64,000 bases of DNA from Alphaproteobacteria bacterium (GTDB lineage: Bacteria > Pseudomonadota > Alphaproteobacteria > Rs-D84): positions 270 to 64,269 of the forward strand of contig JAFURB010000010.1 of NCBI GenBank assembly GCA_017472065.1, given 5' to 3'. The notes under the pieces are model-generated. The model was given only the letters and a program-made list of their open reading frames with translations. It made no database searches and was not told where the DNA came from. Position numbers and translations under genes: made by a program. This document shows positions 13,302 through 26,485 of the stretch, one piece after another (within the stretch, counting starts at the first letter, position 1; every line of letters starts with the position of its first letter).

Positions 13302-14543
13302 TCAAACAATATCATCACCAACGGGGTGTGTTGTTTTTAACACACGCATATTTGGATTATACTGGGCCGCACAGCGATTCTTGATAAACAACAATGCCCA
13401 CAATCCAATCAGCATTATTATCGCCCCAAGGATAAATATACTGTAACGCCAACTGCCCATTGTGCCACCCAGACCAATCAACAGGCATGTTATGACATAG
13501 ATAACATTATCGCCAATACTGTACAGTGACAAAATCACAGATCGATATGATGAAGGCAAGAAATCTTGGAATCGGGAATACAGCAAAATATAAATTGCCG
13601 CAAACAGCGCATATGCCGCACCCAACGCCCACAGGCCTGCAACATTATAAAATACAGAAAACACAACATACAGACCGCCCGCCAAACTGATTGATGAATA
13701 TAATATCCAATCTGGCACCGCCTTAAAACGATGGGCAAATGTTTGCCCCAGCACACTGCACCCCAGGGCAAAAAACTGAACCAATCCGACATACACAACA
13801 GGCAAACCGATTTCAATACCAATCGGGCTTAAATAATCATCTAAATAACAAATATTACTGACCAGCAATGTTAACATCAGCATCAAGAATATGCACGGTG
13901 TTTGTACGCAAATACGGGTTCCTGTACGAAACAGTTTCATAAAGTTTGTCTTGCGAACACGTTTTGGCGCCTGATGCGGATGTGAACGCAACTGAATCCG
14001 ATTAATGCAAATCATAGAAATCGCAATCGAAACCAATGATGCCAATGTTATCCATTGATACCCAACAAACATCAACAAAGATCCAAACGCAGATAATGCC
14101 GCCGCAACCGCCGACACGTTATATCGCATCCCCAGGACGCGCGCATAAATATCATGGTGACGGCGCGCACGCAATTCGTCATACAATAAACCTTCGAACG
14201 CAACATTAAAGAACGCAGACTGGACACCCCATAAAAACATACCGATTGCAAATCCCCAAAATGTTGGCCAAACCAACCACAGGGCAAATGCAATTGCCTT
14301 TAATATTTGTCCCAGGTTTATGGCATTTTTTAGACCTAATTTGTTTGTTATCCATGTAACAGGGATTTGGGTCATAAATGTTCCCACCGACAAAATAATA
14401 AACAGTGATGACAATGCCATATCGGACATACCGTGTTCTTGCATAAACACGGCATAAACCGGACTTAACAACAATAATTTGTTAAAAAAAGTATATCCGT
14501 AAACATTTGTCAAAAAACGACGCAAAGACGATTTCTTTTTCAT
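13302..14543 (-). CDS. MFS-type transporter (paralog 1)
   Basis: 413 aa, about 12 hydrophobic segments. Clearly paralogous to the next gene (..YGYTFFNKLLLLSPVYAVFMQEHG.. vs ..YGFAFFNKFLLLTPVYAIFMQQNG..). Confidence 0.65.
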   Translation of the reverse strand: MKKKSSLRRFLTNVYGYTFFNKLLLLSPVYAVFMQEHGMSDMALSSLFIILSVGTFMTQIPVTWITNKLGLKNAINLGQILKAIAFALWLVWPTFWGFAIGMFLWGVQSAFFNVAFEGLLYDELRARRHHDIYARVLGMRYNVSAVAAALSAFGSLLMFVGYQWITLASLVSIAISMICINRIQLRSHPHQAPKRVRKTNFMKLFRTGTRICVQTPCIFLMLMLTLLVSNICYLDDYLSPIGIEIGLPVVYVGLVQFFALGCSVLGQTFAHRFKAVPDWILYSSISLAGGLYVVFSVFYNVAGLWALGAAYALFAAIYILLYSRFQDFLPSSYRSVILSLYSIGDNVIYVITCLLIGLGGTMGSWRYSIFILGAIIMLIGLWALLFIKNRCAAQYNPNMRVLKTTHPVGDDIV

Positions 14544-14606: not shown

Positions 14607-15782
14607 TTATTTGTTCAATGGACATTGACGACGCACGTACAGCATTGCCCACGCGCACACAACCAGCATCAACAGCCCAAGGATAATTATACTGAAACGC
14701 CAACTGCCCAGCGTCGCCCCCAGCCCAACAACACCACATACAATCATGTATAAAACATAATTCAATGTCGTATAAACAGACAGTACAACCGAACGGTGAC
14801 GCGGGGGTATCATATGCTGAAAACGCGAATACAGTAATGTATAAATCCCATAGAACAACATGTACGCAATTCCCATTATCCACAAAGACCATACATCATA
14901 GTGCAAACCAAATGCGATAAATGCCGCCCCCACACCACCAATCAGTGAATACAGCAAACCATCATGAATCTTGGTAAATCTGTATGCAAAACGTTGGCCG
15001 ATTGTCGCACACCCCAGCAAGAACAATGGCACAACACCAACATATTCTGTTGGAATCCCAATTTGAAGACCAATAGGACTTAAAAAATCATCCAAAAACG
15101 GTATATTTATAATCAGCAATGTCAGTATCATAACAGACATCAGGCATGGTATTTTCAAACAAATATTTAACCCAGATCGCAATAATTTCCGCATTGGTAT
15201 CGCAACAACATTTTTTGATGACGCAATTGGAATATGTGGTAATATAATCAAACAAATCATTGATATCAATATTGCCACAACCGATGCCCATGTTACCCAT
15301 GTGTACCCCATAAACATCAGCAAAGACCCAAACGCAGACAATGCAACACCAACTGATTCATATGTTGATTTGCGCCCCAGGATACGGGAATAATCGCGCT
15401 TGTTACCATATATGGCAACACCATCGTACACCAAGCCTTCAAATGCGACACTGCGAAATCCGGCCTGGGCACCCCATGCAAACATACCAATTACAAATCC
15501 AGTATAATTTGGCAGAACCAACCACAATACAATCGCGAACACCTTTAACATTTGGCCAATCATCATTGACCAGCGCTGCCCCAGACGATTTGTGATAAAT
15601 GTAATTGGCCCCTGACATAAAATCGTGCCCAATGCAGAAATTATAAACATTGTTGACAATTGCAGGTCATTCAGACCATTTTGCTGCATAAAAATGGCAT
15701 AAACTGGTGTCAGCAATAAAAATTTATTAAAAAACGCAAAACCATATATTCCCAACAATAAACGACGCATCGATGCCCCCAT
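14607..15782 (-). CDS. MFS-type transporter (paralog 2, tandem)
   Basis: Collinear similarity to 13302..14543. Start trimmed to ATG 15782 to match the paralog N-terminus. Confidence 0.65.
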   Translation of the reverse strand: MGASMRRLLLGIYGFAFFNKFLLLTPVYAIFMQQNGLNDLQLSTMFIISALGTILCQGPITFITNRLGQRWSMMIGQMLKVFAIVLWLVLPNYTGFVIGMFAWGAQAGFRSVAFEGLVYDGVAIYGNKRDYSRILGRKSTYESVGVALSAFGSLLMFMGYTWVTWASVVAILISMICLIILPHIPIASSKNVVAIPMRKLLRSGLNICLKIPCLMSVMILTLLIINIPFLDDFLSPIGLQIGIPTEYVGVVPLFLLGCATIGQRFAYRFTKIHDGLLYSLIGGVGAAFIAFGLHYDVWSLWIMGIAYMLFYGIYTLLYSRFQHMIPPRHRSVVLSVYTTLNYVLYMIVCGVVGLGATLGSWRFSIIILGLLMLVVCAWAMLYVRRQCPLNK

Positions 15783-15894
15783 ATATTCTTGGATTACAGT
15801 ATATACCTTTTTCAAATAAAAAAGCACCAAAAATATTGAATTTTTGTCAAATTTGCACTATAATAAGTGGGATAAGAATAAAGGTGACGGCACA

Positions 15895-17715
15895 ATGGCA
15901 TTTGATACCGAAAAATTTATTGTAGATTTAGCGAAGCAGTTAAACCTGCGAAACATGGATGATGCCCAGCGTGCCAGATTGGCCGACCTGAAAAGAAAAG
16001 GGGTTGCAACAGGCAAACAAAAAAAATGGGATCCCACAGCCCTGCCACCAGAAATTAACGCAATCACACCGGCAGACCCAACCACAACCCCACCAACCCC
16101 AGAAACATTTACATATACTGGCGAAGATACAGCTACGCATCCTGTGCCGACATCGGATAGTCTGCAGGATTTATATCTGAAACTGGTTGTAATTTTGCGC
16201 GATGTTAATGCGGACAAAGATTTACGCGAAAACGATCCAACGAAAAAATTTCTGGAAACCTTTTATGGTGCAGGCAAGGCAATAGAGCAGTATGTATCAA
16301 AACCCGTCCCTGCAACTTATCCGGTTGCCGACATCGCAAATTATATTGCAACAAATAAAGCCCAATTGTTTCTTGCCCTGGGAATCAACGAATCAGACCT
16401 GGAAAAATTGGCAAATGCATTAAATGACGGTTCATACACAACCAATGCCAAAGCATTGGGAATTTTTGAAAAATTTTTAATAAAACTGTCTAATCATTAC
16501 TATAGCGGTGGTGCTACATTGCCTGGGACAATACCCCTGGGAATACAACATCCAGACCAAATATCTGATATATACCAGGCCATAACAACACCAGAAGATC
16601 CCACACCGGCACAACTAAGTCAACTTATGGCTGGCAAAGAAGACCTGTTTGGTAAATTGATTGCCAATGAAAAATTGCGCGAAAAGGTTCTGGCCAAAGA
16701 TACGAACGGCGATATTACCACATGGATTAACAAGGGCTTAAATGAAACAAACTATAATGATGGCGATCACAAATTAAACCCTTTGTACGAAGACAGAAAA
16801 ACTCTGTTCGAACGCGCAAAAGACAACCTGAAAAAGAAATATGAAGATACACTGGGAAAACTAGAACAAAAACACAAACGGCATATTTATTCTACGAACG
16901 CACGATATATTGTCGAACAACTTATCAAGAAAAAAATTGACCCAACAAGTGGTATGGAAAAATTGTATGATACCCTGGGGGCTGTCAAAGCAGATTTACC
17001 AAACCCAGTTCAAAAACAATTAGATTGGGTAATAAAAACACTGGGCAAGGTTTCCGACAAAACATTTTTTAAGGAAGCATTATCAAACGGCAACCAAATG
17101 CGACAATTGGTTCAAGAAATTGTAAAGGCGGCCGTTCATGACGACAAAAAAGAAGAAGCAAAGGTTGCGCTGGAGATGCTGTCTGTTATGCGATATACGA
17201 TGACAACATCTTCGGTGCGAGCAAACCTGAAAAAAACAGAATTCACAATATTTTCTGACAGTTCTTTGTCTATAAATAAAAACGGTGGCGAAATGGTTCA
17301 GGCATTTACCAAGGCAACCGACAAACTAATAAAGACAATGACCATGGGTGTGTTCGAACTGGGGAATCTGGCAAAGAACGCAATTAAAACAAACGGCGTT
17401 AAATTTGGGCATGGCACAGGAAGACTGGACAAAAGAACAACCGACAGTGTTGAATACGCAGACCCAGATAAAAAGAAAACAATGGAAGAATTGTACGCAT
17501 GGTGGGATTTCTTTAATTCGTCAGATCAAAGCAAGGATTACAATATCCTGGCATCACACAAAGGCAAACAAAAGGCAGCAGACGATGCAGGCACCCCAGG
17601 CACAGTCAGCATTACCACAGCCGCAGGTGACACATATTCTATTGACGACCCAACAAACCAGCAAGAAAGATTTCTGGAATTTTTACGACAGAACAATATT
17701 GGACGCGCCGCATAG
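15895..17715 (+). CDS. Large hypothetical protein (606 aa) with Pro/Thr-rich N-terminal linker
   Basis: Start at ATG 15895 after AAAGGTGA. TTGAAT-17-TATAAT promoter at 15835-15865. PPEINAITPADPTTTPPTPETFTYTG segment, no family recognised. Confidence 0.55.
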   Translation: MAFDTEKFIVDLAKQLNLRNMDDAQRARLADLKRKGVATGKQKKWDPTALPPEINAITPADPTTTPPTPETFTYTGEDTATHPVPTSDSLQDLYLKLVVILRDVNADKDLRENDPTKKFLETFYGAGKAIEQYVSKPVPATYPVADIANYIATNKAQLFLALGINESDLEKLANALNDGSYTTNAKALGIFEKFLIKLSNHYYSGGATLPGTIPLGIQHPDQISDIYQAITTPEDPTPAQLSQLMAGKEDLFGKLIANEKLREKVLAKDTNGDITTWINKGLNETNYNDGDHKLNPLYEDRKTLFERAKDNLKKKYEDTLGKLEQKHKRHIYSTNARYIVEQLIKKKIDPTSGMEKLYDTLGAVKADLPNPVQKQLDWVIKTLGKVSDKTFFKEALSNGNQMRQLVQEIVKAAVHDDKKEEAKVALEMLSVMRYTMTTSSVRANLKKTEFTIFSDSSLSINKNGGEMVQAFTKATDKLIKTMTMGVFELGNLAKNAIKTNGVKFGHGTGRLDKRTTDSVEYADPDKKKTMEELYAWWDFFNSSDQSKDYNILASHKGKQKAADDAGTPGTVSITTAAGDTYSIDDPTNQQERFLEFLRQNNIGRAA

Positions 17716-17740: not shown

Positions 17741-17810
17741 TTGATTTTTATGTCGTTTTATGATATAATATTCTGTATCAACACCGCCGTATGTGGCGGT
17801 GTTTTTTTTT
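17741..17810 (+). promoter_or_regulatory. Sigma70-type promoter immediately followed by an intrinsic terminator
   Basis: TTGATT(17741-46)-17 nt-TGATATAAT(-10 at 17764-69), then ACACCGCC-N6-GGCGGTGT plus T9 (17781-17810), 44 nt before the next ATG. Confidence 0.5.
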
Positions 17811-17853
17811 ACAGCTAATAAATCTTTTATATAAAACCTTAAGGAAATATATT

Positions 17854-18432
17854 ATGTCAAAAATTCTGCAAGTGCGGCGCGGTTCAACCGATGCCAATAA
17901 TAATTTTACCGGGATGCCGGGGGAACTGTCATTTGATACAGATAAAAAAACATTACGCGTACATGATGGCGAAACACTGGGCGGATTTGAATTGTTACGC
18001 ACAGACCAAAATTCATCCAGCGGTGATGGCACATTTGATATAACAAGTGTATCAGATGAATTCTGGGCCGAAACCATTGCGCGTTTCGCACCGGCACCAT
18101 TTACAATCCTGACCAGTCCCCAGATGAAGGTAAAAAGCACTGTTCCATCAACCGAGTGTATTTTCGATACCGTCAGCAAAGAACCAGCCTTTGTTCGTGT
18201 AATGCTGATATGCCAATCACCGGATGCCGGATATGCAATCGGCGACACGGTTTATGCATTTGGTATCGGCAATCGCACAAACCCAACACCAAACATATGG
18301 ACCGACGATAACGGCGTGCATGTACAATTAATGATTGGTAATGAACAATTCTGGGTCAGTCACAAAGACACCGGCACACAAACAAACATTGTGCCAGAAA
18401 ACTGGCGTTTATTATTCCGAGTTTACTGTTGA
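17854..18432 (+). CDS. Phage tail-fibre N-terminal-domain protein (Mtd_N / hyaluronidase-like motif)
   Basis: MSKILQVRRGSTDANNNFTGMPGELSFDTDKKTLRVHDGETLGG matches the (I/L)Q(L/V)RRG...GEL..DTD...L(K/R)(I/V)GDG opening of many phage fibre/tropism proteins. RBS AAGGAAA. Confidence 0.6.
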   Translation: MSKILQVRRGSTDANNNFTGMPGELSFDTDKKTLRVHDGETLGGFELLRTDQNSSSGDGTFDITSVSDEFWAETIARFAPAPFTILTSPQMKVKSTVPSTECIFDTVSKEPAFVRVMLICQSPDAGYAIGDTVYAFGIGNRTNPTPNIWTDDNGVHVQLMIGNEQFWVSHKDTGTQTNIVPENWRLLFRVYC

Positions 18433-18486: not shown

Positions 18487-19728
18487 ATGTACATACTTGC
18501 ACTGAACTGTGGTTCATCTTCATTAAAATATCAGGTTTTTGACGCGGATTCTAAACAGGCAATCGTCGGCGGTAATGTCGAAAAGATTGGTTTGCCAGAT
18601 TCTTTTGTCACACAGAAATATCCAGATGGCACAAAACAGAAAAAAGAAACATCTATGCAGAATCATAACGAAGCATTAAATGTTGTTCTGTTTATGTTGC
18701 GCGAAGCATCAATTGATTTGAACGAAATCAAGGGTGTTGGTCATCGCGTCGTTATGGGTGGCGACAAATTCGCATCATCTGTTGAAATTAACGACGAAGT
18801 TATCAAAACAATTGATGAATTGTCGGCAATTGCGCCACTGCATAATCCATCTGCGCTGATGGGTATTGTTACCGCGAAACAGTTATTGCCAAACGCAACC
18901 CAGGTCGCTGTGTTTGACACTGCGTTCCACCAGACAATGCCAGATTATGCATACCGCTATGCGGTGCCAAGTGCATGGTATCGTGAATTAGGCGTTCGTC
19001 GTTATGGGTTCCATGGAACGTCACATTTGTATGTTTCAAAACGCGCGGCAAAAATGCTGGGCAAACCGGCCAACGAATGCAACCTGATTACATTACATAT
19101 TGGTTCGGGCGCGTCGGCCACGGCAATTCGCAACGGTGTTTCCGTAGATACATCTTTGGGTATGACACCATTGGCCGGATTGACAATGGGTACACGTCCA
19201 GGTGACCTGGATCCGGGTGTTGTTTTGTATGTTATGAACCGTTTGGGCATTAACGCAGACCAAATGCAAAAACACTTGAACAAAGATTCAGGGCTGATGG
19301 GTATTACAGAATGCTTTGCCGATCGTCGCGATGTCGAAGGTAACAAAGACGAAAACGACCTGTGCCGCTTGGCCATTGATATGGAAGCACACAATGTAAA
19401 AAAATACATCGGTGCATTTATGGCTGAATTGGGACATGTTGATGCGCTGGTATTTACCGCCGGCGTTGGCGAAAACGACGATTATCTGCGCGAAAAATTC
19501 TGTGAAGGTTTGGAAGAATTGGGCATAAAATTAGACAAAGAAAAAAATGCAGTTGCCCTGGCACGCAAAGGTGTTGACCAAGCCGTTATCAGCACAGATG
19601 ACAGTCGCGTCAAGATTTTGATGATTGCAACAAACGAAGAATTGGTAATTGTCGAAGACACATTGGCAATTATGAACGGCACATACAATCCAGATCATTT
19701 GAAAATGGATTATTCGTTTGTAAAATAA
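18487..19728 (+). CDS. ackA: Acetate kinase
   Basis: MYILALNCGSSSLKYQVFD N-terminus and collinear acetate/propionate kinase sequence. Start moved to ATG 18487. Confidence 0.94.
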   Translation: MYILALNCGSSSLKYQVFDADSKQAIVGGNVEKIGLPDSFVTQKYPDGTKQKKETSMQNHNEALNVVLFMLREASIDLNEIKGVGHRVVMGGDKFASSVEINDEVIKTIDELSAIAPLHNPSALMGIVTAKQLLPNATQVAVFDTAFHQTMPDYAYRYAVPSAWYRELGVRRYGFHGTSHLYVSKRAAKMLGKPANECNLITLHIGSGASATAIRNGVSVDTSLGMTPLAGLTMGTRPGDLDPGVVLYVMNRLGINADQMQKHLNKDSGLMGITECFADRRDVEGNKDENDLCRLAIDMEAHNVKKYIGAFMAELGHVDALVFTAGVGENDDYLREKFCEGLEELGIKLDKEKNAVALARKGVDQAVISTDDSRVKILMIATNEELVIVEDTLAIMNGTYNPDHLKMDYSFVK

Positions 19729-19735
19729 AACACAT

Positions 19736-19766
19736 AAAAATCCCGCCAAATGGCGGGATTTTTTTA
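19736..19766. terminator. Bidirectional intrinsic terminator
   Basis: AAAAATCCCGCC-AAAT-GGCGGGATTTTTTT between convergent ackA and the XRE gene. Confidence 0.75.
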
Positions 19767-19994
19767 TTTATTAACTTTATGATAGTTTTTCGCCCACATC
19801 ATGTTACAAGCTTCGACAAATATTTTGCGTATTAATGTTTCATCGGGTAATATCTGCCCCCTTTCAATCCGTGCCAAAGCATCCCTTGGGATTTTAAGAA
19901 TTTTCGATAAATCCTTGCGACTTAGATGCGCGCTACGCCGTCCACGACGCAATGCATCACCATAGAATCTGGCATCAATTAAAACTACTGTCAT
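19764..19994 (-). CDS. XRE-family helix-turn-helix protein (76 aa)
   Basis: LSRKDLSKILKIPRDALARIERGQILP HTH_XRE-like core. RBS AGGGGGA. Confidence 0.7.
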   Translation of the reverse strand: MTVVLIDARFYGDALRRGRRSAHLSRKDLSKILKIPRDALARIERGQILPDETLIRKIFVEACNMMWAKNYHKVNK

Positions 19995-20004
19995 ATTTCA
20001 TCCC

Positions 20005-20150
20005 CCTTTTTTTTACATAAAAACCGCCATATAAAAGGCGGTTGGAGGCTCAAAACTATTAACAGTAATAGCGTGCTTATTTAGATATATCGCAACCCTC
20101 CAACCTGTGTTGGAGTTTTCTGTTAGAGGTTTTGAGTCCTCGCACCGGAT
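20005..20150 (-). ncRNA. Structured leader/sRNA, copy 1 of a two-member family
   Basis: TTGAAT-17-TATAAT promoter (20184-20156, minus), ~145-nt transcript ending in AACCGCC-N8-GGCGGTT plus U-run. Homologous to 23671..23885 with compensatory changes in helices. Confidence 0.5.
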
Positions 20151-20226
20151 TACCAATGCCCCCACATTATACCGCATAAAAAACAGATATTCAAGTTTGT
20201 TCAAAAAATAAAAATTTTATTATAAA

Positions 20227-21522
20227 TTATTTAATCAAATCGCCGGCCTTGATATATTCGGGGTCGTTTTTTTTCAGGTACTTTTGCGCGCGACGCGCAT
20301 ATTCAACCGATTTATCCGTATCACCACGCATTGCATGATATTCCGCCATCGCCCATGCGTGACGACCAGAATCCGCATCACCATAGCATCGTGCCAAAAC
20401 CCAATACGCCAGTGGAGTCGGTTCCGTCAACACAACATGTTTAGATAACTCAATCGCGCGCGATATATCGCCGGGCTTTTTCCGTTCTGATAAAACCAAT
20501 GCCAGGGCTGTTTCAATCTGGGGCGCGTTATCAATCAGTGACAATGATTTTTCATATGCATGAACACTGTCATCATAATGACCAAACTGATATTCAATAT
20601 CACCCAGCAATTCATAGAAATATCCATTATTTGGATTGCGCGATATTAATGTTTCAACCCCCATGCGCGCACCATCCAGATTTCCCCCACGCATGTTCGC
20701 AATTGCGCGTGCATACAGGGCGGAATCTGATTTATCCGTGTACGGATATTTTGTTAATACCGTCTTTGCATCATCCAAATATCCAATCAGTTTTGCACGC
20801 ACCAATTCATATCGCGCATCGCGCGTGGTGGTATTTGGCGCACGGTAATCGGGCGCATGTTCGGCAATATATTCGCGTGCGTTCTTTAACCGTTCACGGG
20901 TCAGTGGATGATTAATTCGATTTGGATTAATTGTGTTTTCTAATTCGCCGGTTAAATCGTTCATCTGTTCAAAGACAGTTATAAATCCATTTGGATTCTG
21001 GCCAGATTGTATCATTAAATCAATCCCCAGATTATCTGCAATGCGTTCTTCGTCACGGGAAAACGCCAACATCGACTGGGTTGCGACACCCGATGATCCG
21101 GCCAGGACCCCTGCCCCCAGTGATGGATTACCACCGGCGACCATTAATCCGATTCCCAATGCCTGAATCAACATGGTGCGTTTCATTTCGGCATCCATGC
21201 GCGCAGATAATTGTGCCATGTGACCACCAATCGTATGTCCCAATTCATGCGCCACAACCGCAACCAGTGCATCGGGATTCTTTATTTGTTTCAACAGACC
21301 GGTGTAAATAAACACATCTTCGCCACCACGGACAAACGCATTAAAATCATCATCACTGACAATATTTATATTTAACCGGCCACCTGGGATATTGGCCGCC
21401 GTCCCCAGCGGTGCAACCAGTTCTGATAGAAAATGTTCTGTTTCTGTGTCATTAATCAATGTCGCACAAAATGACGGCATCGTTATAAAAAGCGATAACA
21501 AAAGCACACAAAACCTACGCAC
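20227..21522 (-). CDS. M48-family periplasmic metalloprotease with TPR-like C-terminus (BepA/YfgC-like)
   Basis: Signal peptide, HELGHTIGGH zinc motif, helical-repeat C-terminal half. Confidence 0.85.
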   Translation of the reverse strand: MRRFCVLLLSLFITMPSFCATLINDTETEHFLSELVAPLGTAANIPGGRLNINIVSDDDFNAFVRGGEDVFIYTGLLKQIKNPDALVAVVAHELGHTIGGHMAQLSARMDAEMKRTMLIQALGIGLMVAGGNPSLGAGVLAGSSGVATQSMLAFSRDEERIADNLGIDLMIQSGQNPNGFITVFEQMNDLTGELENTINPNRINHPLTRERLKNAREYIAEHAPDYRAPNTTTRDARYELVRAKLIGYLDDAKTVLTKYPYTDKSDSALYARAIANMRGGNLDGARMGVETLISRNPNNGYFYELLGDIEYQFGHYDDSVHAYEKSLSLIDNAPQIETALALVLSERKKPGDISRAIELSKHVVLTEPTPLAYWVLARCYGDADSGRHAWAMAEYHAMRGDTDKSVEYARRAQKYLKKNDPEYIKAGDLIK

Positions 21523-23572
21523 CTTGGATTACCCCACGATTAAATATAAACATTAAATCACGCGTCCAATCATCTGCATCATTATCACGCGCCGCATTTG
21601 CCGCCAATTTGAACAGGTCACGATGTTCACGATAATCTACAAAATGATATTGTATCCAACCACTTTGTCGGGTACCCATTAATTCACCAACACCACGCAT
21701 CATTAAATCTTGTTCGGCAATTATAAAACCATCATCTGTTTCACAAAGGACATCTAAACGCTTTATTCCATCATCAGACAGGTTATTCCCAAATACTAAC
21801 ACGCAATACGATTGCGTGTTGCCGCGACCGACACGCCCACGCAACTGATGTAATGCCGCCAAACCAAATCGTTCTGCGTTTTCAATAACGATAATAGATG
21901 CACGTGGGACATCAATGCCAACCTCTATGACCGTGGTTGCAACCAACATCCGCATATTAGAATTATCGTCGGCAAATTCTTCCATGACGGCGTCACGTTG
22001 TTTTTTGTCCATTTGACCATGAACCAGCCCCGCCGTCGGGAAATATTCGCACAGCATTTTATGCCGTTCAACAACCGCCGTCATGTTTGTGTCAACATTT
22101 TCAGATTCTTCGACCAGGGGACACACCCAGAAAACCTTGGCCCCGGTGGAAATTTGTGTTTGCAGGCGCGCAACCAATTCATTTATTCGCATCATTGGCA
22201 GTTTTGTCGTCTTAATTGGTTTGCGACCGGCAGGCTTTTCATTAATAATCGAAACATCCATGTCGCCATAGATTGTCATCGATAAAGTTCGCGGAATCGG
22301 TGTCGCAGACAATGCCAACAGGTCTGGATTATTCCCTTTTTGTCGCAGGGATTCGCGCTGGGCCACGCCAAATCGATGCTGTTCATCAATAATGACCAAT
22401 CCCAAATCCCGATATTCAACATCCGCAGAAAACAGTGCATGCGTTCCAACGACCAGGCGCGTACGCCCAGATTTTAATGATATTAATTTTTCACGGCGTG
22501 CAACACCTTTGTCACGGCCGGTTAAAATATCACACACAATGCCGATTTTATCGCACATAGGTTTTAGTTTTGCATAATGTTGCTGGGCCAATGTGTCGGT
22601 TGGTGCCAGTAATGCACTGCACGCACCTGTTTCAGCCATTTTTATCGCCGCCGCCAGCGCAACAATCGTTTTACCAGATCCAACATCACCCTGGACCAGG
22701 CGCATCATCGGTACCGGCTTTTGCAGGTCACTAAAAATCTCGTCACAGGTGCGTTGTTGTGCGCCCGTCATTTCAAATGGCAGGGTCGCATAAAATTTAT
22801 CCATTAAATCGTATTTTTTCGGGCGTACAACGCGACGATTCCGGATGTCGGCACGGTTGCGGCGACTGATTACAATTGCCGATTGGTGGGCAAATAATTC
22901 ACAATATGCCAACTTGGCCATATATGTGGCATTTGGCATCAAATCATCGGCAGATGTGGGAAAATGAACATGTTGCATCGCATCAAAAAATTCCAGAATG
23001 CGTTCGTCGGTTTCAAACCGCAATTTATCAGGCAATATTTCAAATATTCTGTCGCGAACATTGGCGAAAACTTTCTGGGTTAATCCTTCGCCTGCGGGAT
23101 AGATTGCCTGAATCGATGGAATCTTGGATGCGTTTTGCATTTCTTCGATAAAGTCAGGATGACTTATCGTTGGGCGCGCGCCACGTTCCAGTTTGCCAGA
23201 AATCATACGCCACGCACCAATTGGTAATTTTTTCAACCAATAATCCAGATAGTTTACATTAAAGAACTGAATCACGACCGTGTTGCCCATTTTGTCGTTA
23301 CATAAAATCTGGGTTGGGCGACGACGACCACGGAAAAAGCCACCTGATTTATGACTTTTGATCAATAACGGAATCGTTATAACATCACCAGGGGTCACAT
23401 CCATAACATTATCTGTTATATCGCGCGCACGAACATATGCCGGACGATGTAACAAGAAATCCAGCACACGGCGCCCACCCAACACATCATCAAAGCGTGC
23501 CGCCAAGACCGGCCCCACCCCCTTGATGAATTGCAGGTCTGTATTCAAAAAATCAATCAGTTCATGTTTCAT
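21515..23572 (-). CDS. recG: ATP-dependent DNA helicase RecG
   Basis: Walker A GDVGSGKT, IIDEQHRFG box, N-terminal wedge region, 685 aa. Confidence 0.95.
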   Translation of the reverse strand: MKHELIDFLNTDLQFIKGVGPVLAARFDDVLGGRRVLDFLLHRPAYVRARDITDNVMDVTPGDVITIPLLIKSHKSGGFFRGRRRPTQILCNDKMGNTVVIQFFNVNYLDYWLKKLPIGAWRMISGKLERGARPTISHPDFIEEMQNASKIPSIQAIYPAGEGLTQKVFANVRDRIFEILPDKLRFETDERILEFFDAMQHVHFPTSADDLMPNATYMAKLAYCELFAHQSAIVISRRNRADIRNRRVVRPKKYDLMDKFYATLPFEMTGAQQRTCDEIFSDLQKPVPMMRLVQGDVGSGKTIVALAAAIKMAETGACSALLAPTDTLAQQHYAKLKPMCDKIGIVCDILTGRDKGVARREKLISLKSGRTRLVVGTHALFSADVEYRDLGLVIIDEQHRFGVAQRESLRQKGNNPDLLALSATPIPRTLSMTIYGDMDVSIINEKPAGRKPIKTTKLPMMRINELVARLQTQISTGAKVFWVCPLVEESENVDTNMTAVVERHKMLCEYFPTAGLVHGQMDKKQRDAVMEEFADDNSNMRMLVATTVIEVGIDVPRASIIVIENAERFGLAALHQLRGRVGRGNTQSYCVLVFGNNLSDDGIKRLDVLCETDDGFIIAEQDLMMRGVGELMGTRQSGWIQYHFVDYREHRDLFKLAANAARDNDADDWTRDLMFIFNRGVIQGA

Positions 23573-23670
23573 ATGCTATAAATTTAGTGAATTTGCGTCT
23601 AATATTCAATAATAAACTTTTTGTTCAGCAAAATGTTGAACCGTTTCAAACTTTCATGTATAATGTGTGT

Positions 23671-23885
23671 GTTATGGTGAATTGCCATAATGGGGTGTCA
23701 AGACCCGTACAATACGCGTTCGAAATAACGGTACAACATGCATGTAGCGTGCCGGGTGTGTTTCGAACGAAAAAACTCCTGATATTTATCGTCAGGAGGG
23801 TTGCGAATATATTGAATAAGCACACAATTCGTATTGATTGTCTTGAACCTCCTGACCACCTGTAAAAGCGGTGGTTTTGTTTTTC
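23671..23885 (+). ncRNA. Structured leader/sRNA, copy 2 of the family
   Basis: TTGAAC(23636-41)-17-TATAAT(23659-64), ~215-nt transcript ending in ACCACC-N9-GGTGGT plus U-run, 22 nt before the ATG at 23908. The 3' ~110 nt aligns to copy 1. Confidence 0.5.
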
Positions 23886-23907
23886 ACAAAACAACAGGAG
23901 TTTAAGA

Positions 23908-24312
23908 ATGAAAAAGATATACATATGCGGATTAGTTAGCACAGTATTAACATTTTGCATAAATCCGTCGCATAAAACATATGCGGCAGATTTCACATCA
24001 ATGAAATGCGTCGCACAAATTGCATCTAATAAAACCAATTGGAATGCAAAATGTGGTAAAATATCCGTCAGTGGAAAATCAACATGTGTAAACATGCCTG
24101 GGGACAAGCCGTATGCGACAACAGGAATATTTCAATTAAGCAATAATAATGACAGGCTGGATTGTTGGTGCAAAATGACATCCCCGAACGAGTCTGCGTG
24201 GATATTTTTAGGTGCATATCCAAGCGCATCAGATTGTGATAATAATTGCATGGATAACTGTGCAGTTCACATGCAATTATCCCAAGAATTTCGCAAAGCA
24301 TTTACACAATAA
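23908..24312 (+). CDS. Secreted cysteine-rich hypothetical protein (134 aa)
   Basis: Signal-peptide-like N-terminus MKKIYICGLVSTVLTFCINPSHKTYA, multiple Cys in the mature part, RBS CAGGAG. Confidence 0.55.
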   Translation: MKKIYICGLVSTVLTFCINPSHKTYAADFTSMKCVAQIASNKTNWNAKCGKISVSGKSTCVNMPGDKPYATTGIFQLSNNNDRLDCWCKMTSPNESAWIFLGAYPSASDCDNNCMDNCAVHMQLSQEFRKAFTQ

Positions 24313-24459
24313 ACAACTGCACAGACACTATAATTATACCAGTTTGCAGATTGTGCATAGCCGTTGTACCATTTGACACGGCTCTAATCAAAAACGCATG
24401 TGTGTGCTTGATTTAGGCCCGTTACACAATTAGATGTTAGCGAAAATTGAAACAGCAAG

Positions 24460-24957
24460 TTAATACTTTACTTCATTTAATATTTTCCAAAATTCAGGAA
24501 CGTTCTTTGGTGCCATTCCGTTCAGCAGTTGCACCGATGCGATTGAGCCAAATGGCGCATAAAAACCATCATCAAAATCATAATATTTTCGTATGCAGTT
24601 ATTTATTGCAACATCTAAATCCGCCATTGACATGTGAATCATCAAATCCCATACCCGTTCCAGTATCTCGTCATACTTGTAATCACTGAATCTGTAATTA
24701 TCCCAGAAATAATACAATATTTGTTTTGCCTGTGCACGACTCAAATCTTTGATATTTTCTGGGAAATTAAAACGTGGATGTGCCACCCGATACATATCCA
24801 GTTTTTCTTGATTTACGGCATATGCATTTATAAGTGCGGGGTTAATTTTTGTTTCGCCCCCCGCATATTCTATAACCTCATCAATCCAAGCGTCGATTGG
24901 ATGCCCCCATGAAGGTGAATGCATCAATAAAAACAATAAAATTATTATCTTTTTCAT
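24460..24957 (-). CDS. Secreted GH108-like (N-acetylmuramidase-like) domain protein
   Basis: Signal peptide MKKIIILLFLLMHSPSWG, then IEYAGGE...HPRFNFPENIKDLSRAQAKQILY, paralogous to the C-terminal domain of the upstream gene. The start could instead be ATG 24993, which overlaps the upstream stop by 4 nt. Confidence 0.55.
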   Translation of the reverse strand: MKKIIILLFLLMHSPSWGHPIDAWIDEVIEYAGGETKINPALINAYAVNQEKLDMYRVAHPRFNFPENIKDLSRAQAKQILYYFWDNYRFSDYKYDEILERVWDLMIHMSMADLDVAINNCIRKYYDFDDGFYAPFGSIASVQLLNGMAPKNVPEFWKILNEVKY

Positions 24958-24989: not shown

Positions 24990-25847
24990 TCAATATCTAT
25001 TTGTACGATTTGTCCATCCACGACCATATTTATCCCAATCGGATAAAGTGCGAAGATATTCGATTCTATTTTCTTTTAGGGTATTCATAAAATCATTTAC
25101 TTTATATACTGGTATATCGTTTAGTGCGTTTATCGTATTTTTGCCCATTTTTCCGTCCACTACCAAATTTTCACTCATTGAATCATTCAGTGTTTTTTGA
25201 ACCATCTTGATAACATTTCTAAAATTACTCATAACCCCCATGTCAAATATAGAATTAGATATTCTTGGGATTTTTATTTCGCCTATTTTACGTTCGTCAT
25301 AATAATCTTCTTTATATATTTGTTTTGCGTGCCCGCGTTCTATATCTGCAACTTTTTTCGGAAAATTAAAGTTTGGATGGTCTGCATTGTATTTGTCCAG
25401 TGTCGGTTGGGTTATTCCAAAATTAGTTGGTTGGTCTATCAAATCAGGATTGTCAACATATCCCGCTTCTTCGTCCAATGTCTTTTCCAAAGAATACTCT
25501 TTTATCTGATTTTTTACCAGCTCATCACTATCATCTAATTCTATTTCTTCTATCCAACAACGACAATTTTTATGATGCGGATTTTTTGGAATCTCTTCAA
25601 TGTGTTCATAAATTTTATTTGCAAAACTCAGACATATATCACGTGTTTTATCATCAATCACCGTATGCCACCGCCATGCGGTTCTGATTGTGATATTATG
25701 CCCCGTTGCGTCTGTACGACTGTTGCCATATTTGTTTTCAAAATAATCGTGTACCTGTTTGGCGACAGTAGCGTGGTTGGGATTATTACTGTTTAAATAC
25801 GCGTCGCTGTGCATAAGGGTTAGTATATTATTTGATAATTTATTCAT
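24990..25847 (-). CDS. Phage MuF/SPP1-gp7-like head-morphogenesis domain fused to GH108 muramidase + PG_binding_3-like domain
   Basis: VIDDKTRDICLSFANKIY...PHHKNCRCWIEEI (MuF-type H.NCRC motif), followed by EEAGYVDNP..TNFGITQ..(GH108-like) and GKMGKNTINALN...GRGWTNR (PG-binding-like). Start set to ATG 25847 after AAAGGA. Confidence 0.7.
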   Translation of the reverse strand: MNKLSNNILTLMHSDAYLNSNNPNHATVAKQVHDYFENKYGNSRTDATGHNITIRTAWRWHTVIDDKTRDICLSFANKIYEHIEEIPKNPHHKNCRCWIEEIELDDSDELVKNQIKEYSLEKTLDEEAGYVDNPDLIDQPTNFGITQPTLDKYNADHPNFNFPKKVADIERGHAKQIYKEDYYDERKIGEIKIPRISNSIFDMGVMSNFRNVIKMVQKTLNDSMSENLVVDGKMGKNTINALNDIPVYKVNDFMNTLKENRIEYLRTLSDWDKYGRGWTNRTNRY

Positions 25848-25849
25848 TT

Positions 25850-25958
25850 TTAATCCTTTTGGTATAAAAAACACCCGCGGTGGCGGGGATAAAAAAAGAC
25901 GACAAAATGCCGTCTGTCTGATGTGATGTATTATATCATATATTCCCGTTTTTTTCAA
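25850..25958 (-). promoter_or_regulatory. Sigma70-type promoter followed by two terminator-like hairpins upstream of the MuF-GH108 gene
   Basis: Minus strand: TTGAAA(25958-53)-17-TGATATAAT(-10 at 25935-30), then AGACG-N9-CGTCT+T7 and CCCGC-CACC-GCGGG+TGT6, then AAAGGA RBS and ATG 25847. Confidence 0.45.
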
Positions 25959-25984
25959 TATAAAACGCCCCAGACGGGGTGTTT

Positions 25985-26485
25985 TTATTTTGTTTTTTGT
26001 GCAATTTTTTCAACCGTCAATCTAAAACCATTTAATTCAAACGAGCGACCCGCCATATTTTGTAGGTTTAATCTGATTGTGACATCTTGATAACGCCCCA
26101 ATAAATCATGCAAAAATGTATAATTTTCTATCATAAGATGCAACTTGCTTGATATTTCACGAGAAATATAAAAATCGTGTGCATAATTAATAGAAACAAG
26201 AACCCATGGCGCGACATAACCATCATTAAACGCCACGCGCGCCCAAAGATTATCCCCCTTTTCAGCGACAGGATTTCCAGTTTTATAGAATTCCCCAGTT
26301 GTTTTAGATGTCAAAAAATGCATTTCTTGGATATTTGGATAGTGGTTTTGAAGATTTTGGAAATTTTTGTGTATAGATTCTGGGTAACCTATGGTCGCGC
26401 CACGATATGTTGTTGCCGGCTTGCCGCCGATAAAAATCCCGTTCGTGTTTATTGTAATATATTCTGTTTTTGGCATATCTGGCAT
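25985..26485 (-). CDS. Hypothetical protein (166 aa)
   Basis: The ORF track entry begins inside tRNA-His; start trimmed to ATG 26485 (MPDMPKTEY...). No family recognised. Confidence 0.45.
   Translation of the reverse strand: MPDMPKTEYITINTNGIFIGGKPATTYRGATIGYPESIHKNFQNLQNHYPNIQEMHFLTSKTTGEFYKTGNPVAEKGDNLWARVAFNDGYVAPWVLVSINYAHDFYISREISSKLHLMIENYTFLHDLLGRYQDVTIRLNLQNMAGRSFELNGFRLTVEKIAQKTK

Follow-up and report, generated by a model that had tools for sequence, protein, structure and literature searches.

Two related elements in a 64,000-nucleotide stretch of an Rs-D84 alphaproteobacterial genome (contig JAFURB010000010.1 of assembly GCA_017472065.1, positions 270 to 64,269 of the forward strand; hereafter the window) are probably 5' leaders that act as transcription attenuators with two mutually exclusive folds. 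Copy 1 precedes a gene for a small XRE-family helix-turn-helix (HTH) protein and copy 2 a gene for a signal-peptide protein (Table 1). Together with their relatives in other genomes they make up a large, apparently undescribed set of switchable leaders in tiny-genome gut Alphaproteobacteria, distantly related to the small RNA (sRNA) family sRNA-Xcc1. In the proposed default state, three elements near the 5' end (G(A/G)GG, outer-a and outer-b) would pair with the region before and including the CCUC of a segment termed strand 3, strand 1 would keep strand 2 in a hairpin (H1), and the terminator would form, so that the polymerase would halt 20-50 nt before the ribosome-binding site (RBS). In the antiterminated state, strand 2 and strand 3 would instead form helix P1, which would close a three-way junction of P1, P2 and P3 similar to that of sRNA-Xcc1; since P1 uses the first 3-4 nt of the terminator stem, the gene would then be transcribed. 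An effector, be it a metabolite, a second messenger or an RNA-binding protein, might recognize the P2 loop or the junction and cause read-through, either by stabilizing the P1-P2-P3 fold or by blocking the 5' strands, and small XRE regulators would in this way come under joint control with a large set of secreted Cys-rich proteins. Candidate binding sites for such a factor are the conserved P2 loop and the junction.

Several lines of evidence indicate that both copies are genuine. A 29-nt core pattern common to them (GGAGGGUUGCGA-N8-AAUAAGCAC) occurs twice in the window where 0.00 occurrences are expected, their promoters are the best two sigma-70-like sites between 19700 and 24400, and a consensus scan picks up both promoters (copy 1 scoring 10/12) and the copy 1 terminator independently. 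A covariance model built from 115 unique copies returns exactly two copies over the window, at 90 and 106 bits (CM R1 scores of 90.1 for copy 1 and 106.2 for copy 2); a further candidate at 25893-25985 (17.9 bits) was rejected, as it consists merely of a terminator and a promoter. At full length the leaders have minimum free energies (MFE) of -55.9 kcal/mol (z -7.04 against shuffles) for copy 1 and -73.1 kcal/mol (z -4.63) for copy 2. The transcription start of copy 1 is placed by the position of the -10 box and is thus a prediction.

A first-pass annotation of the window had described copy 1 as a promoter-to-terminator RNA upstream of the XRE gene. All motifs and pairings it listed are found in the sequence, and its start codon at 19994 is correct, with the RBS at 20008-20001. 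The promoter hexamers and their 17-nt spacing are likewise present, but the positions given for them (20184-79 and 20161-56) were 10 nt too low, which leaves the true -35 box outside the annotated span; the terminator, placed at 20033-20005, lies at 20043-20019. The homolog reported at 23671-23885 is real and carries strands 1, 2 and 3, the outer helix and the terminator, with the correction that it lies on the plus strand. The two copies are therefore on opposite strands and diverge around the M48-peptidase and recG genes.

A scan of species-representative genomes with the core pattern yielded at least 116 loci. In total there are more than 140 relatives, among them about 35 more divergent copies that the covariance model found in the fetched loci (contig stretches cited here by the labels L002-L125). 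Among the matches listed, nearly all hosts are metagenome-assembled genomes (MAGs) labelled Candidatus Enterousia, uncultured Alphaproteobacteria or 'Rickettsiales'; the first of these is placed in the order Rs-D84, with genomes of about 0.75-1 Mb (PMC12306168). Single MAGs hold at least 8 pattern-matched loci (e.g. JAFTPS/RGIG4037, CANSHD and CAMWON) with at least one leader per locus, and TATAAT stands at an equal distance upstream of nearly all relatives. Two IMG/VR 'viral' contigs (L002:12083-12198 and L004) share an identical class A leader before a 316-aa secreted protein. A contig labelled Bacteroides fragilis (L068, CAVGNU010000002.1) has a typical class B leader before a secreted protein that, judged by eye over the first 60 residues, is 80-90% identical to proteins of L083 and L087, which are labelled Alphaproteobacteria or 'Rickettsiales'; this contig is probably mis-binned.

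Two competing folds upstream of co-oriented genes

All leader classes share one order of elements. The TATAAT promoter is followed by hairpin P0, G(A/G)GG, outer-a, CC(U/C)N, outer-b, an optional insertion and an A-rich linker; then come strands 1 and 2, P2, P3, outer-a', the overlap of strand 3 with the terminator, the U-run, a spacer of 20-50 nt, and the RBS with the start codon. The core of the anatomy drawn in the first-pass annotation was right, but the RNA is larger, with P0 near its 5' end, an outer helix lengthened by G(A/G)GG:CCUC pairing and, in competition with P3, a second outer sub-helix. Between the switch strands, the stretch noted earlier as conserved resolves into P2, with a covarying stem and a conserved loop, and P3; we infer that this stretch could serve in ligand or protein binding, as had been proposed.

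Leader class goes together with the kind of gene that follows. A co-oriented open reading frame (ORF) with an RBS lies downstream in 116 of the 122 strict-pattern matches, its start a median of 61 nt after CCUCC, which leaves no room for a promoter, so that read-through of the terminator is the sole route to the gene. Behind the short class A leaders, to which copy 1 belongs, the gene product is a small XRE-family HTH protein in 25 of 26 cases. A signal-peptide-like N-terminus marks the proteins that follow class A leaders with an insertion (13 of 15) and class B leaders such as copy 2 (57 of 61), or 70 of 76 for long class A and class B leaders combined. These secreted proteins are mostly Cys-rich and without a Pfam family, although Ephrin_rec_like or Flg_new repeats are recognized in a few; compared with NCBIfam and PDB sequences, the gated proteins gave just generic XRE HTH matches. 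The copy 1 gene product matches Pfam HTH_3 and HTH_31, while that of copy 2 has no match in Pfam or NCBIfam. We count this correspondence between leader subtype and gene type as the logic of a regulon, in keeping with attenuation. A third class (C) occurs in the same MAGs, likewise upstream of signal-peptide proteins; its P2 is longer and GC-rich and contains AUACAACA.

In the terminated fold, the outer helix (G(A/G)GG:CCUC, outer-a:a' and outer-b:b') stands together with H1, P2 and the terminator. RNAalifold arrives at this fold as the consensus for 28 short class A and for 36 class B leaders, and it is the MFE structure in 93 of 102 leaders, as it is for each window copy. Across the class B alignment this fold pairs 96.5% of cells, and both sides change in 26 of 49 pairs; the covariation score is 0.427, compared with 0.152 for shuffled alignments (0/500 reach the observed value) and 0.04-0.10 with the partners slid. 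The outer helix claimed for copy 1 is borne out by strong covariation: its pairs show 2-15 double changes each in the RNAalifold consensus, and in class B double changes occur at 6 pairs of outer helix 2 and 5 pairs of outer helix 3. The 5' outer strands match their own 3' strands over 7-8 nt but those of other copies over 4-4.7 nt (0/1000 permutations), with values of 7.5 against 4.3 nt for outer-a of the copy 1 type and 7.3 against 4.6 nt for outer-b.

The antiterminated fold, P1 (strand 2 with strand 3) around P2 and P3, is conserved alongside. P1 has 9 of 9 pairs, or one G-U at most, in about 120 copies, as scored with Watson-Crick weighting; a three-strand descriptor scan and a most-3' register rule were dropped, as they were noisy with G-U pairs permitted. 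The three strands change together across at least five sequence types, strand 1 tracking the type of strand 2 in every class: CUCCAAC / GGUUGGAGG / CCUCCAACC in class A, CUCCUGA / GUCAGGAGG / CCUCCUGAC in class B (where a UGGC wobble variant exists), CCCGAC / GGUCGGGG / CCCCGACC in class C and its relatives, UCCUGC / GGCAGGAGG / CCUCCUGC in a single copy, and a further type with GGAGU / GCUCC variants. Strand 3 overlaps the terminator stem in every class, through AACC, GAC or GACC; in copy 1 AACC opens the terminator stem, and the terminated fold joins the CCUC of strand 3 to the 5' GAGG. The sequestor/antiterminator/terminator topology proposed in the first-pass annotation is thus supported by related sequences, whose coordinated changes preserve the three-strand pairing. 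P3, which is incompatible with outer-b, covaries between classes, from A-U to U-A in 45 of 115 copies; in copy 1 the two exclude each other because the outer-b partner CUGUUA is made up of the P3 loop and 3' side. The stem of P2 covaries freely in divergent copies, while classes A and B share the conserved loop GA(A)UAUA...AAUAA. In sum, both window copies have a GC-rich hairpin and U-run directly before the ORF with no promoter between, and the family has a conserved antiterminator over the 5' half of the terminator together with a sequestering third strand, as expected of an attenuator.

Forcing P1 costs 7-11 kcal/mol in the full-length leaders but 3-5 kcal/mol before the 3' half of the terminator is made. 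Termination would thus be the default, and a modest input could reverse it; by our own estimate a gap of 3-5 kcal/mol is within reach of a bound factor.

Two further features were observed in parts of the family. Many class B insertion domains (e.g. L035, L042 and L074) contain a GC-rich hairpin followed by U5-7 (GGCGC-N4-6-GCGCC-UGUUUUUAU), which from its sequence looks like a second, earlier intrinsic terminator within the leader, and the insertion of copy 2 (23717-23769) holds a weaker version of it. In short class A leaders (e.g. L007, L009, L011, L028, L039 and L056) the loops of P0 and of the terminator are complementary and co-vary, with the pairs GUGAU:AUCAC, GUGAC:GUCAC, UGACG:CGUCA and GUGAUGA:UCAUCA. 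The mean longest complementary run is 4.14 compared with 3.35 when permuted (0/2000), which points to contact between the two loops when XRE-type leaders are in the terminated fold. Such kissing was dropped as part of the model for the window, as it is absent from copy 1.

Table 1. Coordinates of the two window leaders, their parts and genes, and of class C leaders in other contigs
Feature	Position	Strand	Details
Copy 1 promoter	20166-20194	minus	-35 TTGAAT 20194-20189, 17-nt spacer, -10 TATAAT 20171-20166
Copy 1 leader RNA, ~141 nt	20019-20159	minus	predicted start to end of U-run; class A, short subtype
Copy 1 P0 hairpin	20143-20158	minus	CAUUGG-UAAU-CCGGUG; 7 pairs, double changes at 3 (class A short alignment)
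Copy 1 outer-helix 5' strand	20129-20141	minus	GAGG 20141-20138 and outer-a CUCAAAAC 20136-20129; partner 20045-20056
Copy 1 outer helix, DNA letters	20136-20129 with 20056-20049	minus	CTCAAAAC with GTTTTGAG
Copy 1 outer-b 5' strand	20120-20125	minus	UAACAG; partner CUGUUA 20065-20060; in MFE structure
Copy 1 strand 1 (anti-antiterminator)	20109-20115	minus	CUCCAAC; pairs with strand 2 to give H1
Copy 1 strand 2	20097-20105	minus	GGUUGGAGG (DNA GGTTGGAGG); partner strand 1 (H1) or strand 3 (P1)
Copy 1 P2	20073-20096	minus	stem GUUGC...GCAC, conserved loop GAUAUAUCUAAAUAA
Copy 1 P3 hairpin	20056-20071	minus	CUAUUA-CUGU-UAAUAG; double changes between classes, A-U to U-A among them
Copy 1 strand 3 (3' strand of P1)	20040-20048	minus	CCUCCAACC (DNA CCTCCAACC)
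Copy 1 intrinsic terminator	20019-20043	minus	AACCGCC-N8-GGCGGUU and UUUUU; helix with double changes among relatives
RBS and 76-aa XRE-family HTH gene	19764-20008	minus	RBS 20008-20001; ATG 19994; stop included at 19764
Copy 2 promoter	23636-23664	plus	TTGAAC 23636-41, 17-nt spacer, TATAAT 23659-64; 10/12
Copy 2 leader RNA, ~214 nt	23671-23884	plus	class B with insertion domain
Copy 2 P0 hairpin	23672-23690	plus	UUAUGG...CCAUAA; class B helix 1, double changes in 7/8 pairs
Copy 2 outer-helix 5' strands	23692-23716	plus	GGGG 23692-95; outer-a UCAAGAC 23698-704 (partner 23840-46); outer-b CAAUACG 23710-16 (partner 23830-36)
Copy 2 insertion domain	23717-23769	plus	closed by CGUUCGAAA / UUUCGAACG; equivalent stem in class B consensus (helix 4)
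Copy 2 hairpin H1	23776-23799	plus	strand 1 CUCCUGA 23776-82; strand 2 GUCAGGAGG 23791-99
Copy 2 P2 and P3	23800-23841	plus	P2 23800-23823; P3 ACAAU 23824-28 with AUUGU 23837-41
Copy 2 strand 3 and terminator	23848-23884	plus	strand 3 CCUCCUGAC 23848-56, overlapping terminator GACCACC...GGUGGUU and U-run 23854-84
RBS and 134-aa signal-peptide, Cys-containing protein gene	23896-24312	plus	RBS 23896-23900; ATG 23908
Class C leader	L010:3984-4122	minus	
Class C leader	L062:7794-7917		
Class C leader	L081:2577-2710		
Class C leader	L089:1431-1557		
Class C leader	L100:2713-2823		
Class C leader	L109:1449-1569	minus	
Class C leader	L012:3843-3970		
Class C leader	L102:5782-5888		

Relation to sRNA-Xcc1 and the case for a trans-acting RNA

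No Rfam family reaches its gathering score on the window copies. Copy 1 nevertheless aligns end to end with sRNA-Xcc1 (RF02221) at 35.4 bits, compared with a gathering score of 53 (E-value 0.0015 in 5 kb and 0.02 over the whole window); copy 2 gives no match to this family at E-values up to 10. Scores of 33.6-38.5 bits were obtained for three class A relatives or class C copies, and no match for several others, class C being closest to the canonical family (38.5 bits). The earlier statement that the RNA was not recognized as any riboswitch, T-box or sRNA family thus stands at the gathering score, but given the recurrent sub-threshold match the RNA is a distant relative of a named family and not wholly unrecognizable. 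The window elements are best regarded as a remote branch with ties to sRNA-Xcc1 and a more elaborate structure, and not as members by the Rfam criterion.

The likeness is structural as well. The family has the three-way junction of the sRNA-Xcc1 type, with P1 of about 9 bp around P2 and P3; in both, a 9-bp G-rich/C-rich P1 closes P2 and P3, and a UUUGAG-like joiner precedes the 3' strand. Class C leaders form a bridge between the two groups, with a P1 nearly that of the E. coli member: the two share an identical strand 2 (GGUCGGGUG) and the P2 motif AUACAACA, while strand 3 reads CGCCCGACC in class C and CACCCGACC in E. coli. In contrast to sRNA-Xcc1, the P2 loop sequence of the window copies differs, and the window RNAs carry an extra 5' domain (P0 and the long outer helix with its two sub-helices), a well-matched anti-P1 strand and a terminator with a true U-run. 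The E. coli member has P1 in its MFE structure and no U-run, whereas the MFE structure of the window family is the terminated fold.

The canonical sRNA-Xcc1 of E. coli O157:H7 EDL933 (NZ_CP008957.1, 1394619-1394707, minus strand; 69.1 bits) has an upstream strand complementary to the 5' strand of P1 and a hairpin overlapping the P1 3' strand. A phage antirepressor (Ant) gene in the same orientation follows 40 nt downstream. In this leader region (L125:49579-49830, minus strand, equivalent to NZ_CP008957.1 ~1394579-1394830), sRNA-Xcc1 stands behind a promoter TTGACA-18-CATACT, and the leader also has an upstream hairpin with a U-run. The arrangement hints at a cis role, of which we found no mention in the searchable literature. 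At the EDL933 coordinate printed in PMC5331693 the RefSeq record has hok/sok, and a 100-kb scan located sRNA-Xcc1 about 2.6 kb away. Consensus-derived patterns for canonical sRNA-Xcc1 in viral contigs gave 0 matches and then 2 chance matches within coding sequences, without Rfam support. Elsewhere sRNA-Xcc1 is reported upstream of symE in integron cassettes (bioRxiv 10.1101/2025.06.18.660453) and of an ORF6N gene in APSE (bioRxiv 10.1101/2020.03.17.996009).

Our literature search found no paper that describes sRNA-Xcc1 as an attenuator; published work treats it as a trans-acting sRNA, which accumulates as an 88-89 nt RNA in Xanthomonas (PMC2996969) and in enterohaemorrhagic E. coli (PMC5331693). 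The leaders could accordingly be stand-alone sRNA genes whose exposed C-rich or G-rich motifs pair with targets such as Shine-Dalgarno sequences, read-through being incidental or secondary. Each unit does have its own promoter and terminator, each genome holds many sibling copies, and two arrays (L048:5566-6091 and L091:1882-2463, both on the minus strand) comprise three promoter-leader units about 210-260 nt apart with no ORF between, recalling the five tandem sRNA-Xcc1 homologs of Xylella (PMC12189769). We nonetheless regard this account as unlikely. About 95% of the copies are co-oriented with a promoterless ORF 20-50 nt after the U-run, which is unexpected for an independent sRNA gene; CCUCC and GGAGG are paired in both folds; and a conserved fold that disrupts the terminator (P1 and P3) would be purposeless in a plain sRNA. 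Upstream units of the arrays have lower scores, and the unit farthest upstream in either array is without a terminator hairpin, which suggests decay. Given the strict cis arrangement, a purely trans-acting main function is unlikely, while the leaders may combine a cis role with action as a trans sRNA as a second role.

What might set the choice of fold

The exclusive series of anti-antiterminator (1:2), antiterminator (2:3) and terminator (3:4) upstream of an ORF is familiar from riboswitch platforms and from trp, pyr and T-box attenuators, and many copies per genome before functionally linked genes are likewise a property of T-box and c-di-GMP riboswitch regulons. The window family differs from these systems in that the OFF state would be enforced by a long 5'-3' closing helix, beyond a local hairpin. 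There is no match to an Rfam riboswitch or known aptamer family, nor any T-box or specifier feature (RF00230 gives no match at E-values up to 10 in 19500-24500). The leader peptide of trp-type attenuators is missing too: when the aligned copies were inspected, without a formal ORF scan, neither a start codon nor an ORF proved to be conserved within the leaders.

Leaders controlled by BglG/SacY at the ribonucleic antiterminator (RAT), by PyrR or by ANTAR proteins offer a second comparison, as they too terminate by default and are relieved when a factor stabilizes an antiterminator that overlaps the terminator. The bglG and sacY genes lie behind their own RAT leaders, and here an XRE regulator gene stands behind the same kind of leader as the presumed co-regulated genes. 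Unlike those systems, the family shows, on inspection by eye, no RAT sequence and no paired ANTAR-type hexaloop hairpins; XRE is a DNA-binding HTH without a known RNA-binding role, and no candidate antiterminator protein was identified.

The leaders might also attenuate without a dedicated effector, the race between outer helix and P1 being set by polymerase speed or nucleoside triphosphate pools, NusA/NusG, temperature or Mg2+. The folds are just 3-5 kcal/mol apart at the decision point, outer-a' is made just before strand 3, so that folding order matters, and the genomes are reduced and may hold few regulators (PMC12306168). Against such a purely kinetic switch, which we judge improbable, stands the P2 loop, conserved in classes A and B amid a covarying stem: P2 is the same in both folds and lies outside the switch, so that conservation of its loop argues for sequence-specific recognition. 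Nor would this account lead one to expect at least three leader classes kept together in one genome.

Sensing of translation, by a leader-peptide attenuator or by the ribosome or 16S rRNA through the Shine-Dalgarno-like GGAGG and anti-Shine-Dalgarno-like CCUCC, is very improbable: these motifs do match the respective cores and the three-strand logic does recall trp-type attenuators, but UUG/AUG candidates are not conserved across copies, and class C and E. coli sRNA-Xcc1 use GGGG/CCCC or CGGGUG/CACCCG instead, so that Shine-Dalgarno identity is not required. We give equally little credence to conservation at the DNA level, as a promoter-operator cassette for XRE proteins or a recombination or gene-conversion substrate of a surface-protein family, even though the gene set includes XRE DNA-binding proteins and numerous secreted-protein paralogs and the P2 loop holds the short palindromes AATATATT and GATATATC, for only RNA structure explains compensatory double changes in at least five helices, some of them 100-170 nt apart, the P0 and P2 stems vary among copies of one genome and hence form no common operator, and conservation of the leaders greatly exceeds that of the unrelated proteins downstream.

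Some observations weigh against a default-OFF attenuator. P1 and H1 are invariant within each class, and support for the switch therefore rests on few between-class changes and the rarer divergent copies; the strict DNA pattern that gathered most copies inflates the apparent conservation of P2. With P1 in its MFE structure and no U-run terminator, E. coli sRNA-Xcc1 implies that the attenuator logic may not hold for the wider family. The few upstream tandem units of L048 and L091, with no ORF directly after them, fit stand-alone RNA genes or decaying duplicates better. Transcription start, 3' ends and conditional read-through are all predicted from sequence, and neither the gene set nor the RNA features point to a specific ligand.

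Neighbouring features and wider meaning

A strong bidirectional terminator (19736-19763) closes the monocistronic XRE gene of the window; it is a perfect 12-bp stem (AAAAAUCCCGCC-N4-GGCGGGAUUUUU) between the convergent XRE and ackA genes and draws many spurious sub-threshold Rfam 'leader' and sRNA matches. Beyond ackA, a 213-aa ORF on the plus strand (17791-18432) has an Mtd_N domain, the N-terminal domain of a phage major tropism determinant, and adjoins a 623-aa plus-strand ORF without a clear family (15844-17715), the pair lying between MFS transporter genes and ackA. A diversity-generating retroelement beside the Mtd_N ORF was considered and rejected, as no template/variable repeat pair was found nearby. 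On the minus strand, a 322-aa ORF (24990-25958) combines a Phage_Mu_F-like segment with Glyco_hydro_108 and PG_binding_3 in an endolysin-type arrangement, and by its domains appears to be a phage-derived cell-wall hydrolase in a chromosomal context. Two direct repeat stretches, 14008-14312 and 15253-15557, are 1245 nt apart and 70-75% identical, with one copy of each 1245-nt-spaced repeat inside the MFS-family ORF 14607-15830; that they stem from a tandem gene duplication is only a suggestion.

For the organism, the leaders may be a major control layer for the presentation of surface proteins or the secretome in uncultured gut Alphaproteobacteria with genomes of about 0.75-1 Mb, and one RNA with one switch would offer a concrete handle on an organism that nobody has grown. 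Comparable RNAs, with covariation, two folds and an orphan effector, have repeatedly yielded new riboswitch ligands or RNA-binding regulators. More tentatively, and with less confidence than we place in attenuation itself, the leaders could represent a hitherto undescribed kind of signal-sensing RNA switch with the P1-P2-P3 junction as its sensor, be it an orphan riboswitch or an RNA bound by a dedicated protein or other factor. By extension, the 'trans-acting' sRNA-Xcc1 of phages, integron cassettes and plasmids would be a cis gate on antirepressor, toxin (symE) and regulator genes, which Rs-D84 gut Alphaproteobacteria would have expanded into a genome-wide regulon of surface or secreted proteins. 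Many phage, integron and pathogen genomes carry annotations of sRNA-Xcc1, and its link to the leaders offers a new reading of that family which can be tested.

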